In this document: in pieces, positions 3,623 through 34,619 of the stretch
Numbering within the stretch: the first letter of the stretch is position 1
Layout of the letters: each line of letters opens with the position of its first letter
Assembly (NCBI RefSeq): GCF_053078305.1
Contig: NZ_CP166879.1
Strand: one strand, 5' to 3'
Length of the DNA stretch: 64,000 bases
Notes under the pieces: model-generated
What the model was told of the DNA's origin: nothing
Databases searched by the model: none
The model's input: only the letters and a program-made list of their open reading frames with translations
Program-made: the position numbers and the translations under genes

Positions 3623-4840
3623 ATGCCCGAACCCGTAGCCGAACCCGCGCTAAACGGATTGCGCCTGAATTTGCGCATTGTCTCCATTGTCATGTTTAAC
3701 TTCGCCAGCTACCTCACCATCGGGTTGCCGCTCGCTGTATTACCGGGCTATGTCCATGATGTGATGGGCTTTAGCGCTTTCTGGGCAGGATTGGTTATCA
3801 GCCTGCAATATTTCGCCACCTTGCTGAGCCGTCCTCATGCCGGACGTTACGCCGATTTGCTGGGCCCCAAAAAGATTGTCGTCTTCGGTTTATGCGGCTG
3901 CTTTTTGAGCGGTCTGGGATATCTGACGGCAGGATTAACCGCCAGTCTGCCCGTCATCAGCCTGTTATTACTTTGCCTGGGACGCGTCATCCTTGGGATT
4001 GGGCAAAGTTTTGCCGGAACGGGATCGACCCTGTGGGGCGTTGGCGTGGTTGGCTCGCTGCATATCGGGCGGGTGATTTCGTGGAACGGCATTGTCACTT
4101 ATGGGGCGATGGCGATGGGTGCGCCGTTAGGTGTCGTGTTTTATCACTGGGGCGGCTTGCAGGCGTTAGCGTTAATCATTATGGGCGTGGCGCTGGTGGC
4201 CATTTTGTTGGCGATCCCGCGTCCGACGGTAAAAGCCAGTAAAGGCAAACCGCTGCCGTTTCGCGCGGTGCTTGGGCGTGTCTGGCTGTACGGTATGGCG
4301 CTGGCACTGGCTTCCGCCGGATTTGGCGTCATCGCCACCTTTATCACGCTGTTTTATGACGCTAAAGGTTGGGACGGTGCGGCTTTCGCGCTGACGCTGT
4401 TTAGCTGTGCGTTTGTCGGTACGCGTTTGTTATTCCCTAACGGCATTAACCGTATCGGCGGCTTAAACGTAGCGATGATTTGCTTTAGCGTTGAGATAAT
4501 CGGCCTGCTACTGGTTGGCGTGGCGACTATGCCGTGGATGGCGAAAATCGGCGTCTTACTAGCGGGGGCCGGGTTTTCGCTGGTGTTCCCGGCATTGGGT
4601 GTAGTGGCGGTAAAAGCGGTTCCGCAGCAAAATCAGGGGGCGGCGCTGGCAACTTACACCGTATTTATGGATTTATCGCTTGGCGTGACTGGACCACTGG
4701 CTGGGCTGGTGATGAGCTGGGCGGGCGTACCGGTGATTTATCTGGCGGCGGCGGGACTGGTCGCAATCGCGTTATTACTGACGTGGCGATTAAAAAAACG
4801 GCCTCCGGAACACGTCCCTGAGGCCGCCTCATCATCTTAA
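3623..4840 (+). CDS. yhhS: MFS transporter
   Basis: 12-TM-like hydrophobic protein. Trimmed to Met giving 405 aa; divergent from yhhT. Confidence 0.85.
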   Translation: MPEPVAEPALNGLRLNLRIVSIVMFNFASYLTIGLPLAVLPGYVHDVMGFSAFWAGLVISLQYFATLLSRPHAGRYADLLGPKKIVVFGLCGCFLSGLGYLTAGLTASLPVISLLLLCLGRVILGIGQSFAGTGSTLWGVGVVGSLHIGRVISWNGIVTYGAMAMGAPLGVVFYHWGGLQALALIIMGVALVAILLAIPRPTVKASKGKPLPFRAVLGRVWLYGMALALASAGFGVIATFITLFYDAKGWDGAAFALTLFSCAFVGTRLLFPNGINRIGGLNVAMICFSVEIIGLLLVGVATMPWMAKIGVLLAGAGFSLVFPALGVVAVKAVPQQNQGAALATYTVFMDLSLGVTGPLAGLVMSWAGVPVIYLAAAGLVAIALLLTWRLKKRPPEHVPEAASSS

Positions 4841-31156: not shown

Positions 31157-31441
31157 TCAGGGCAAGCCGAAGGCAGCTTTTTTTATTTCGTAATCCTGTA
31201 GATATTCTTCCAGCGGCTTTGCCGTTCCCAGAGAATGAATTTCACCACTGTCTTTATCAATAATAAAAGGTGCGTTACCAGCTAAGCGCGCGGCCTCATC
31301 TCCAGTTTCGAGAAATTCTCGTGCTTCGAAACAGAAATACCAGCCCTGGCTAAAGCGTCCATGTAGAGTAATGACGACCGGGAGATCTGCATCATCAAGG
31401 TAATGGTTCGCTTTCGCGAATGCGTCGTGATAAGTAATCAT
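31157..31441 (-). CDS. yrhB: Small protein YrhB
   Basis: 94-aa ORF in the conserved position next to ggt. Confidence 0.8.
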   Translation of the reverse strand: MITYHDAFAKANHYLDDADLPVVITLHGRFSQGWYFCFEAREFLETGDEAARLAGNAPFIIDKDSGEIHSLGTAKPLEEYLQDYEIKKAAFGLP

Positions 31442-31890
31442 AATTATAATAAATATTATTGTTGAGTGTTATATTATTGTTCCTGTGTGATACATTGAGC
31501 AAAGGCGCGTTCATCTTCGTCAAAGATATTATTAAATGCTGGTTTTGAAAAAAGTTCATCGGATAAGATATAGTCACGAAATAAGTATCTGCTAATATTT
31601 TGTGATTTCTTTTTCAGAACGTCGAACGGAATTTTCTTATTTAAGATATCAGAATCTTATGATTCGGGTAAAATTCTAAATAAATCAACATGTCACTAAA
31701 ATCATCATAGCCATTAGCTATTTCGGCTAAAATAGAGACTACATGTCTTCGGTCCATCTCACTTAAGGAGTGTAGTTCCGTTGTAAGTTTTTCCATAGCT
31801 TGCATTGCTAAATTTCGAACAAGGAATTTTCTGGTGGTAATCTCTAAAAAGATGGCATGGTTTACAATGATTTTTGTTTCCTTTTGATTA

Positions 31891-32385
31891 TTATGAACAA
31901 CTGTCCATGATTTCGTTTAAGAATGAAGAGAAATCACTAAACGAACTGAATATATTTTCTGTGCCAATATTATCTCTAATTTCAAAAAAGTTACTTTTAA
32001 TGTCATAAGTAAATATTGAAATGCTATCATCCCCGATCACTAACCGTTCTTGTAGATCAGGGTTTATGAAATCATCATTATTTCTATAAAATTCATTTAC
32101 GGCAAAAAGGTTTTTAACTGAAGGTTCTGGAATCGAGAGGCTAAATAATCGTAATCCATTAACTTCGAATCCATCCATTGCTCTTAAAAAAGTAAGATAA
32201 TCAGGTTGATTCTTAAAAAGAATACTAACTTCATTACATAACTTCTCCAGGCAATTAGTTGAATTAGAATTAAATTCTATTTGGATTATACTTTCAATAA
32301 ATGATTCCTTGAGCGGTGCTTCAAATGGATAGTCTAAATCATTCATCATTTTTATTAATTTGTTTATTTGGGTTTTAGTCATCAT
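31891..32385 (-). CDS. yrhA: Putative immunity protein for the upstream Hcp-HNH toxin (intact yrhA-like gene)
   Basis: 164-aa acidic protein whose start sits in an ATGATGA overlap with the yhhZ stop, indicating translational coupling. AT-rich. Calling it the intact counterpart of the K-12 yrhA pseudogene is from memory. Confidence 0.65.
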   Translation of the reverse strand: MMTKTQINKLIKMMNDLDYPFEAPLKESFIESIIQIEFNSNSTNCLEKLCNEVSILFKNQPDYLTFLRAMDGFEVNGLRLFSLSIPEPSVKNLFAVNEFYRNNDDFINPDLQERLVIGDDSISIFTYDIKSNFFEIRDNIGTENIFSSFSDFSSFLNEIMDSCS

Positions 32386-33560
32386 TTTGTGGGTTCCATA
32401 ATATTTTTCATGGGAGGATAAATTGAGCCAGATGGAATGGCCCAGGGAGTGATTTTGCTTTCACCTACTAATATTCCCTTAGCTATTCGTGATTGCATGT
32501 TAGTAAAAACTTTATGATATGGTTCGTTTTCGATTAATACTAAATTTTCGAAATCATTAGTACCACCATCATCTAGAGATAGTTTATGGTGAACATTATA
32601 ATTTAGAGGAACATAGCCCTTTCTCATTCTTAAAAGGTCTTCGGTGTTGAATCTTCCAGATGCTTCGGAGGTTTTTGCAAGTTTGATAAGAAAATTTTTT
32701 CTTACAGTTTTGTTAAACTCCTTTCGTAAGTTAGCTAAGTCTTTTGAAGGTCTCTTAATGTATATTATTTCTATTATGTCTATGCCATCAAGAAGTTTTT
32801 GTTGACCTCTAAGTTTGCCTAAGTAACTATTTATTTCTGTATATGTATCAACTTTAGAACGCTTTGTTAAAAGAATAGATGCTGTTGCTATCGCTATGCC
32901 CGCTGTTTTTTCATTTAGTATTTGATCATAGCCTTTGATTGCATCTCCACCCAGTTTTTCCGCAGTATCTCTGAAACCTTCAATGTTCCCATTGTATACG
33001 CCACCAGCAGCAAGTAGCCTGCCAACAGCTTTGCTGTTTAACGTTTTGAAACGATTATTTGTTTGGTTTTTTGAATTTGGTAAAAACAAACGGTTATAAT
33101 TTTCAGGGAGTGCCAAATAGCTGAACTCGGTATTTGCGATAAGATGTTGACAGAGGATAAATTCATAACTAACAGTTATTGTTTCTGTATCCAGTTGATT
33201 TTCAATGATCTGATGATGAATAGCCGATAAAAAAGCGCCTCTTAGTTGTATATAATAATACTTTTCCCATCTGCCAAATCTATTGATTCTATAAAAGTCA
33301 AATTCCATAAATAATTGCTCATTATTGTTAATGGAATTAATAAGTAATGGAGTGCTTTTATCAATTAATTTACAAAATGTTATACCCTGTAACTGTGAAC
33401 CAAGCCCCGTATTAGTAATGCTATTTGCGAGTGAGAATGTAAATATTTCATTCTCATGCCCGCTCTGCCAGCGATTACCTATAGATTCAGTAGTCCCACA
33501 ACCTGCGGAGATGCTTCCTTGTTGTTCTCCCGTTACTGTCAGGTAAACAATATTACTCAT
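32382..33560 (-). CDS. yhhZ: Orphan T6SS Hcp-family protein with a C-terminal HNH-type nuclease toxin domain (Hcp-ET type)
   Basis: 392 aa. The N-terminal roughly 130 aa resemble Hcp. The C-terminus carries an HNH signature (NYNVHHKLSLDDGGTNDFENLVLIENEPYHKVF). AT-rich composition. Confidence 0.8.
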   Translation of the reverse strand: MSNIVYLTVTGEQQGSISAGCGTTESIGNRWQSGHENEIFTFSLANSITNTGLGSQLQGITFCKLIDKSTPLLINSINNNEQLFMEFDFYRINRFGRWEKYYYIQLRGAFLSAIHHQIIENQLDTETITVSYEFILCQHLIANTEFSYLALPENYNRLFLPNSKNQTNNRFKTLNSKAVGRLLAAGGVYNGNIEGFRDTAEKLGGDAIKGYDQILNEKTAGIAIATASILLTKRSKVDTYTEINSYLGKLRGQQKLLDGIDIIEIIYIKRPSKDLANLRKEFNKTVRKNFLIKLAKTSEASGRFNTEDLLRMRKGYVPLNYNVHHKLSLDDGGTNDFENLVLIENEPYHKVFTNMQSRIAKGILVGESKITPWAIPSGSIYPPMKNIMEPTK

Positions 33561-33796
33561 CCCTGAAAAGTCCTTTTATGGCATGCTATTTTATCAATGG
33601 CACTATTATGCTTGTTAATTGTTATTTATTTACTCCAGGAAATTGTAGGCGTATATATTAAAAAATAAAATATTACACTTTAGGAAGTAATTATGAGGTA
33701 AATCTCAATATATTTATTGGGAAAATAAATATATTAAAGGAAGGTATGCCGATTTTGAATGACACCCTTTTTCCATATCAGAAAAAGGGCACTATA

Positions 33797-34285
33797 TTAC
33801 TTCACCCGCGCCATATAATACGCATCGACATATTCACCATTACGTAATGCGTACTTCTTACCAGTCCCTTCAATTTCAAAGCCGTATTTTTTATAGACCT
33901 TAATTGCTGGCGCGTTATCGACGAACACCGTTAGCTCGATACGAGCTACCCGCAACCAGTTGTCGCACATTTCAATCATCTCTCGCATAAGGGCGCTGGC
34001 GACGCCGCGATTCTTCCAACGGGAGTCGACACAAATACCAAAATCGGCAACATGACTGCGGCGTGGGCGCTGTTGCACGTCAATGGTGAGGTGACCCACG
34101 ACGGTTCCATCAATACAGGCAACTAACTGTTTGATGCCGGGACGATCGGCGAGTCGCTCCTGCCACATATGATCGGAAGGATGAGGCACCTGTAGTGTGT
34201 TGCAATACACCTCCGGCTGGGCGTGAATCTGCCTGATGGCCTCGTAATCGCGCGTTTCAGCATGGCGTATCACTATCTCACTCAT
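33797..34285 (-). CDS. yhhY: GNAT-family N-acetyltransferase
   Basis: Trimmed to MSEIVIRHAETRDYEAIRQIH... giving 162 aa. Acetyl-CoA-binding motif RWKNRGVASALM. Confidence 0.88.
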   Translation of the reverse strand: MSEIVIRHAETRDYEAIRQIHAQPEVYCNTLQVPHPSDHMWQERLADRPGIKQLVACIDGTVVGHLTIDVQQRPRRSHVADFGICVDSRWKNRGVASALMREMIEMCDNWLRVARIELTVFVDNAPAIKVYKKYGFEIEGTGKKYALRNGEYVDAYYMARVK

Positions 34286-34381
34286 TCCTTTGTCCTCTTT
34301 GGGGTAAATGTCCCTTTCAACATCATTGACTTTCGAATGCGAGTCAAATGCATTTTTTTTGCAAAAAGTGTTGGACAAGTG

Positions 34382-34407: not shown

Positions 34408-34497
34408 GCGATCAGGAAGACCCTCGCGGAGAACCTGAAAGCACGACATTGCTCACATTGCTTCCAGTATTACTTAGCCAGCCGGGTGCTGGCTTTT
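34408..34497 (+). ncRNA. ryhB: Iron-responsive small RNA RyhB
   Basis: GCGATCAGGAAGACCCTCGCGGAGAACCTGAAAGCACGACATTGCTCACATTGCTTCCAGTATTACTTAGCCAGCCGGGTGCTGGCTTTT matches the RyhB sequence as I recall it, ending in its intrinsic terminator hairpin plus U-run. Located between yhhY and yhhX as in K-12. Confidence 0.92.
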
Positions 34498-34619
34498 TTT
34501 TTGATCTTTCGTTCTCAATTTATCCTCGGGAAGTGCTTGTGTTCGTTATGCGCACTCCAGTAGGAACCACGTCCGCTTTGCGCTAAGGTGTAAATAACCA
34601 CCTTAAAAAGGACGAAATC

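Follow-up and report, generated by a model that had tools for sequence, protein, structure and literature searches.

yrhD of Escherichia coli as a probable non-working frame in the presumed scar of a toxin-immunity cassette exchange

The short open reading frame (ORF) in the spacer between yrhA and yrhB that is described here is the already known and catalogued Escherichia coli gene yrhD, and it is best explained, with a probability of roughly 0.6, as a non-working frame within the scar of a cassette swap that has not been maintained as a protein-coding gene. The window, i.e., the whole analysed stretch of 64,000 nucleotides (contig NZ_CP166879.1 of assembly GCF_053078305.1), is the E. coli ugp-ggt-yhhX region, which is reversed relative to K-12. 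The yrhD frame decays within E. coli like neutral DNA would, is devoid of homologues elsewhere, and abuts the remnant of a different, immunity-type gene, which points to an earlier occupant of the locus. The coordinates of all of these features are collected in Table 1.

The initial annotation reported an unannotated 51-codon ORF on the minus strand, and its coordinates, strand, length and translation (MEKLTTELHSLSEMDRRHVVSILAEIANGYDDFSDMLIYLEFYPNHKILIS, which was taken from the ORF list and the sequence) were all reproduced. The word "unannotated", however, applied only to the ORF track of that first reading; public records call the ORF yrhD or "protein YrhD", which is the RefSeq name in most of the E. 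coli genomes that have the spacer. In K-12 MG1655, the same gene (b4612, EcoGene EG14370, Swiss-Prot P58037) is an "uncharacterized protein YrhD" at the same position between yrhA and yrhB, and P58037 has been listed as a hypothetical protein without known function (PMC3575317). The K-12 copy shares 98.7% DNA identity and 50 of the 51 residues (S34N) with that of the window, and nothing substantial differs between them; yrhA, which lies upstream, is split by IS1E in K-12 and is intact in the window. Strain A16 shares 100% identity with the window over 551 nt and has a CDS that is annotated as yrhD at the same place. PGAP, in turn, calls the frame a protein in some genomes and a pseudogene in others. 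The ATG of the alternative upstream start, which would give 54 codons, is replaced by GTG in K-12 and by ATA in other lineages.

Table 1. Features of the yrhD region and of the related loci; positions refer to the window unless a separate locus is named.
Feature	Position	Strand	Description
yrhB	31157-31441	minus	Imm35, Pfam E=4e-23; its orthologue follows imm85 in C. freundii
yhhY-ggt interval	31157-34378		site of differing Hcp toxin ends and small downstream genes among enterobacteria
GTG ORF	31395-31577	minus	60 codons; overlaps the imm85 remnant and the start of yrhB
Spacer	31442-31890		449 nt, 31% GC; between yrhA and yrhB
imm85 remnant	31477-31641	minus	remnant of an ~85-aa immunity-type gene; unannotated; frame other than that of yrhD; stop 31474-31476
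E. coli-only segment	31639-31890	minus	252 nt; yrhD and the 94 nt that separate it from the yrhA stop
yrhD	31641-31796	minus	ATG 31796-31794, TAA 31643-31641; 51 codons plus stop
Alternative yrhD start	31797-31805	minus	ATG CAA GCT, in frame; ATG at 31805
yrhA	31891-32385	minus	164 aa; YrhA family NF038335, E=1.5e-36; presumed YhhZ immunity protein
Sigma-70-like site	31949-31978	minus	TAGAGA-18-TATATT; in the 3'-terminal part of yrhA; yrhD begins ~150 nt further downstream
Plant snoRNA match	31995-32091	minus	sub-threshold Rfam match in yrhA
yhhZ	32382-33560	minus	Pfam T6SS_HCP, E=1e-12; weak HNH match (PMC5714182, PMC6730261)
RyhB small RNA	34437-34501	plus	Rfam RF00057, 83 bits; between yhhX and yhhY, as in K-12
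Candidate toxin tip and immunity gene	L021 1746-3258; L024 1791-3306; L016 2977-4264		three loci that carry both
IS-altered loci	L002 3039-4310; L007 6043-6800		

The distribution of yrhD is restricted to a single species. Among 5426 complete E. coli genomes, about 3808-3810 have the spacer by a megablast search with positions 31400-31950, on the chromosome every time, and about 30% lack it; no divergent allele below 90% identity occurred among these 5426 genomes. An exhaustive phmmer search against 1.84 billion protein representatives found no relatives of YrhD outside E. coli, the two matches from other organisms (P0013 and P0015) being repeat-protein artefacts, and a word-indexed search of 5.8 billion proteins returned YrhD from E. 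coli only. Moreover, a scan of one genome per species revealed no real YrhD outside E. coli, as its sole match was a contaminant contig. This 4-kb contig, CABHOW010000200.1 from a metagenome-assembled genome (MAG) of an uncultured Flavihumibacter, consists of K-12-like E. coli DNA (yhhY-yhhZ-yrhA-yrhD) and ends in a Nextera adaptor (CTGTCTCTTATACACATCT..., positions 3940-3996), which indicates contamination in the public MAG. In the plasmid collection, no true plasmid carries yrhD, and the three matches that were obtained there (NZ_OL790696.1, NZ_CP134663.1 and NZ_CP141089.1) are E. coli chromosomes of 4.8-4.9 Mb; phage sequences gave no yrhD match. Neither Pfam nor NCBIfam has a family that matches YrhD. 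The immunity protein of a polymorphic toxin would be expected to have homologues just behind a toxin domain in separate loci; YrhD has none outside E. coli, in contrast to the family of the adjacent remnant described below.

Within E. coli, the frame is frequently broken. Two samples, each evenly spaced along a list of matching E. coli records, gave an intact annotated frame in 45 of 59 and in 29 of 39 full-length records, with the remaining 14 and 10 (about 24-26%) being annotated as a pseudogene, truncated or hypothetical. Six of the disrupted records were fetched and their lesions were confirmed in the sequence. At least three of the yrhD lesions are independent, i.e., L23* (TTA>TAA), Y39* (TAT>TAG) and M1I (ATG>ATA), and there is additionally a 9-nt duplication in one strain and a 5-nt deletion in another. 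Among nine E. coli sequences, 19 sites of yrhD vary, of which 16 are nonsynonymous, two are nonsense and only one is synonymous. The pairwise pN/pS of yrhD, which is based on very few substitutions, was about 1.7-2.0 compared with 0.10-0.47 for yhhZ, yrhA and yrhB in the same strain pairs. Small as these counts are, they point one way, namely to the lack of coding constraint on yrhD. The intact copies are 99.4% identical to one another, and their intactness therefore neither proves nor disproves selection, as it may reflect recent common ancestry.

When the spacer was simulated 5000 times with a first-order Markov model, 19% of the runs contained an ATG-initiated ORF of 51 codons or more, and the longest stop-free run of the spacer had P=0.07; thus, the length of yrhD is not above the chance expectation. 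Under a codon model that was trained on the three neighbours yhhZ, yrhA and yrhB, yrhD scores +0.28 bits per codon, which is similar to the leave-one-out scores of the real genes; compared with stop-free shuffles, this is mildly gene-like (z=1.6, P=0.06). The weak Shine-Dalgarno (SD) sequence that had been remarked on in the initial annotation was borne out: none was found within 20 nt upstream of either ATG, and the best anti-SD duplex had a dG of about +0.1 kcal/mol. This absence is not decisive because yrhB, a conserved neighbour, has no SD sequence either. In the searchable texts and supplements, nothing was found on the translation (ribosome profiling, proteomics) or function of yrhD; the mentions of it are confined to the name of a locus, a target in SELEX, a failure in array design and a cluster with zero variation. 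The same initial annotation had proposed that a coding gene would be refuted by a frame that is not conserved in related genomes and by a missing translation signal, and most of this was observed, i.e., stops or the loss of the start in about 25% of the copies, no homologues outside E. coli, and neither a translation signal nor published evidence of translation.

Several of these observations run counter to decay and have to be weighed in favour of a genuine small protein, young and restricted to one lineage, which would perhaps serve as an accessory of YhhZ/YrhA and would have been kept in the sizeable near-identical group that contains K-12 and lost elsewhere. The frame is intact in about three-quarters of the strains that have the spacer, RefSeq names its product, its codon usage is mildly gene-like, and translation is not excluded by the absent SD sequence. 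It also has the same direction as yhhZ and yrhA, directly follows the immunity gene yrhA, is part of a toxin-immunity operon in which no terminator precedes yrhB, and has a SELEX-mapped promoter with sigma-70 and H-NS sites upstream in K-12. Additionally, a weak AlphaFold model, computed in single-sequence mode, predicts helices. Nonetheless, the missing homologues, the at least three independent disabling mutations, the almost exclusively nonsynonymous substitutions, the chance-level length of the ORF without an SD sequence and the searchable literature, which holds no evidence of translation or function, make such a protein rather unlikely. A related proposal, in which yrhD would be a very young and perhaps de novo E. 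coli-specific protein that was born in the junction DNA of an Hcp cassette swap and retained in that group as a modulator of YhhZ/YrhA or of yrhB expression, appears to be quite unlikely.

What the spacer once contained is indicated by the sequence downstream of yrhD rather than by yrhD itself. Beyond the yrhD stop, the -1 frame has 60 codons without a stop, and their translation (DSDILNKKIPFDVLKKKSQNISRYLFRDYILSDELFSKPAFNNIFDEDERAFAQCITQEQ) looks like a protein sequence. It includes a remnant, which is referred to here as imm85, whose translation (NKKIPFDVLKKKSQNISRYLFRDYILSDELFSKPAFNNIFDEDERAFAQCITQEQ) has a clearly gene-like codon usage (z=3.2, P=0.002 against stop-free shuffles). The remnant aligns with the N-terminal 54 residues of an 85-aa protein of Citrobacter youngae (45% identity over 53 aa, blastp E=2e-14), with the C. 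freundii member of the same family (tblastn E=1e-15) and with the family HMM (43.5 bits, E=1.4e-15). This family (P0135-P0167) is found in many Citrobacter species and in Budvicia aquatica, is 85-88 aa long and always starts with MKKIP; an N-terminal extension of one Budvicia member was rejected as a gene-calling artefact. The E. coli stretch occupies the same position in the locus as the Citrobacter genes, upstream of Imm35 and ggt. The Citrobacter genes are intact, whereas the E. coli copy has AAT where its relatives have ATG and so has no start codon. It is also without its last ~31 codons (~98 nt at the 3' end), and this missing third is the most conserved part of the family (RxRMNxYxGEGxVEYxGLERK). 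In K-12, there is one further stop. The remnant was present in all of the E. coli lineages examined, and the yrhD stop abuts it, with the lost start of imm85 being situated 2 nt after the end of the yrhD frame. By its sequence, the E. coli copy of imm85 is a pseudogene and is unrelated to yrhD. A second ORF in this part of the spacer, which begins with GTG (Table 1), has a codon z of about 0 and is probably spurious.

Of the three options in the initial annotation (a remnant of a second immunity-like gene, a small protein or non-coding DNA), the first can consequently be divided: it holds for the spacer, at 31477-31641, where the imm85 stump lies, and fails for the 51-codon ORF. YrhD resembles none of the three immunity-type proteins of the region. 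With the 164-aa immunity candidate YrhA (NF038335, SMI1/KNR4-like), for which a similarity search had been recommended, BLASTP gave E=16 and Smith-Waterman z=0.6, and there was no NCBIfam match. With YrhB (Imm35, PF15567), Smith-Waterman z was 0.9 and there was no Pfam match, and even a construct in which yrhD was fused to the downstream frame gave only E=8.5 against YrhB in BLASTP. With the imm85 family, the HMM score was -1.1 bits (shuffle P=0.76) and the hhalign probability was 0.05%. Moreover, none of the comparisons of YrhD with the 78-87-aa small proteins of Citrobacter, the genes of the Budvicia array and the C-terminus of the Citrobacter/Budvicia toxin tip was significant.

The loci of related enterobacteria suggest which toxin imm85 may have belonged to. 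In C. freundii, the order is yhhY, a 294-aa gene, an Hcp of 417 aa, the 85-aa gene after 1 nt, Imm35, a 78-aa gene and ggt, and the C-terminal tip of this Hcp differs from that of YhhZ and is non-HNH. In C. rodentium, yhhY is followed by an Hcp of the same type (402 aa), by a member of the 85-aa family (101 aa) after 1 nt, and by ggt. In Budvicia aquatica, an 87-aa member lies 1 nt after an orphan Rhs C-terminal fragment with the same toxin tip. A small gene directly after a toxin tip on different delivery proteins is the standard signature of cognate immunity. As the same small gene follows the same tip on two delivery proteins, we read the imm85 family as the immunity protein of this Hcp/Rhs toxin tip, which is suggested by gene context. 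The tip, which is ~150 aa long, carries HVHPDG(T/A)L..S..GD and gave no sequence match in Pfam, NCBIfam or the PDB; the motif fits the JAMM HxHx7Sx2D pattern. Together, the tip and the 85-88-aa protein, which lies within 1 nt of it each time, are a candidate for a new toxin-immunity pair.

A comparison of the yhhY-ggt interval showed that enterobacteria differ in their Hcp toxin ends and in the sets of small genes downstream of them (yrhA, imm85, Imm35 and the 78-87-aa family), with the 294-aa gene lying beside yhhY in Citrobacter. In C. youngae, the interval has yrhA and then, after 20 nt, the 85-aa gene. Judged by its gene content, the interval is a cassette-exchange hot spot. In strain HCP17S3_I4, an IS1 element lies between yrhB and yhhY and yhhZ, yrhA and yrhD are missing. 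The architecture of the E. coli locus, i.e., the active-looking toxin gene yhhZ and its immunity gene yrhA followed by the leftovers imm85 remnant and yrhB/Imm35, is the same as that of the orphan toxin-immunity modules of Rhs, CDI and Hcp-ET loci. However, YrhD matches no immunity or toxin family of such arrays, and only its neighbour imm85 does. The genes yhhZ and yrhA are of the Hcp-ET1/ETI1 type, in which ETI1 is the immunity protein against an Hcp that carries an HNH DNase (Ma et al. 2017, summarised in PMC6730261); the passages of PMC6730261 that deal with Hcp-ET1 describe no second immunity protein or accessory small protein, and YrhD is unlike YrhA.

The most straightforward interpretation is that Hcp-borne toxins and their immunity genes have been swapped among enterobacteria at this hot spot, and that a yhhZ-type (Hcp-HNH) toxin end together with yrhA replaced an older toxin end, with imm85 being left to decay. 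The yrhB gene is 69% identical in DNA to the Imm35 gene of C. freundii, and E. coli thus keeps the order imm85-Imm35-ggt behind a different toxin/immunity pair. The present order in E. coli is yhhZ and yrhA, the 252-nt segment with yrhD, the imm85 stump and the orphan immunity gene yrhB (Imm35). Under the replacement scenario, the stump would record a past toxin swap and an immunity to a different toxin tip. As for yrhD, which has a name in every K-12 annotation, the evidence suggests a decaying frame that matters mainly for annotation hygiene, while imm85 and a tip that has no Pfam family point to an undescribed toxin-immunity pair, which may be of modest interest to the field of type VI effectors.

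Neither blastn nor tblastn matched the 252-nt segment that holds yrhD to any other part of the window or to any of 14 loci fetched from outside E. coli, and Citrobacter has no counterpart of it, with only the 20 nt mentioned above separating yrhA from the 85-aa gene. The yrhD frame is also unrelated to the C-terminus of the displaced toxin tip. The segment is most likely the scar of the toxin/immunity cassette replacement. It would be either junction DNA that arrived with the cassette and may derive from a donor gene, in a piece too short to be traced, or a sequence with a chance ORF. As a part of such a scar, yrhD would be a fortuitous ORF or a donor-gene fragment that gathers amino-acid changes, stops and start loss, and any YrhD peptide from the strains with an intact frame would probably be without function.

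A more specific origin would be a decayed orphan C-terminal fragment of an HNH toxin, paralogous to the nuclease domain of YhhZ, which would cover yrhD and the 40 stop-free codons that precede its ATG. Orphan toxin/immunity modules are indeed seen in Rhs and CDI loci, and a toxin gene, too, would be expected to stop as close to the lost imm85 start as this frame does (2 nt before it). Residues 28-49 of YrhD (NGYDDFSDMLIYLEFYPNHKIL) show a local likeness over 22 residues to the HNH core of YhhZ (GGTNDFEN-LVLIENEPYHKVF), and an HMM of eight Hcp-HNH domains scored YrhD at 2.7 bits (E=0.006 for one sequence, shuffle P=0.0115). Furthermore, tblastn produced a collinear alignment of 67 residues in the same frame, which includes TTRKFLVRNLA versus TVRKNFLIKLA. 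However, about eight partners were tried and a P of ~0.01 is not significant after correction, the hhalign probability was 0.4% (E=0.16), and Smith-Waterman on the extended frame gave z=1.5. There is no Pfam HNH match, the catalytic HH pair is not preserved, and there is no DNA similarity to yhhZ. Finally, imm85 partners a different, non-HNH tip, so the pair would not be cognate. We regard this origin as very unlikely.

It was also considered whether the segment acts as DNA or RNA, i.e., as a promoter, as an H-NS nucleation site for yrhB or as a small RNA, with the ORF being incidental. The DNA is AT-rich, and genomic SELEX lists the same hexamers as those of the sigma-70-like site in Table 1 as an RpoD "constitutive promoter" of yrhD with an H-NS mark (PMC3946193). 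Both yhhZ and yrhA are among the H-NS-bound "promoter islands" (PMC3661553), and promoter-like sites lie just upstream of yrhB. Their number in the spacer is not in excess, however, with five compared to 5.6 in shuffles. A search with the covariance models of Rfam 15 found no match in 31442-31890, with RyhB and a sub-threshold snoRNA match inside yrhA as its only results. The RNA folding z-score of the spacer was 0.08, which is nothing unusual, and divergence is higher in the segment (5-12%) than in the genes on either side (2-4%). A role at the level of DNA or RNA is therefore highly improbable. No terminator-like sites were found between yrhA and yrhB, which makes read-through transcription plausible; if yrhD is transcribed, this would be the read-through of the H-NS-bound yhhZ-yrhA-yrhB unit. 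The sub-threshold plant snoRNA match inside yrhA (28.7 bits against a cutoff of 45 bits) is almost certainly noise from AT-rich sequence.

The idea that yrhD and the downstream frame are halves of one gene of ~107 codons, split by a 1-nt frameshift, is hardly credible and was rejected. In its favour, the 60 stop-free codons downstream are strongly gene-like and one rare strain (P0001) with a 5-nt deletion reads through the junction. However, the downstream frame aligns from residue 2 to the N-terminus (MKKIP...) of the free-standing 85-88-aa family, whose HMM separates it from YrhD (43.5 compared with -1.1 bits) and of which no member has a YrhD-like extension, and the same junction is found in all E. 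coli lineages. No slippery heptamer for frameshifting from yrhD into imm85 was seen in the last yrhD codons when the sequence was read by eye. Structure models of the fused construct (pLDDT 48) and of imm85 with an alignment of 29 sequences (pLDDT 52) were too poor for fold searches.

Two further rare variants of the region, each represented by 2-3 E. coli sequences, connect yrhD with the gene upstream of it. In the first, a 246-aa protein (P0010), the yrhA stop is lost and the frame runs into yrhD; in the second, a 105-aa protein (P0005), an internal deletion joins the yrhA frame to yrhD.
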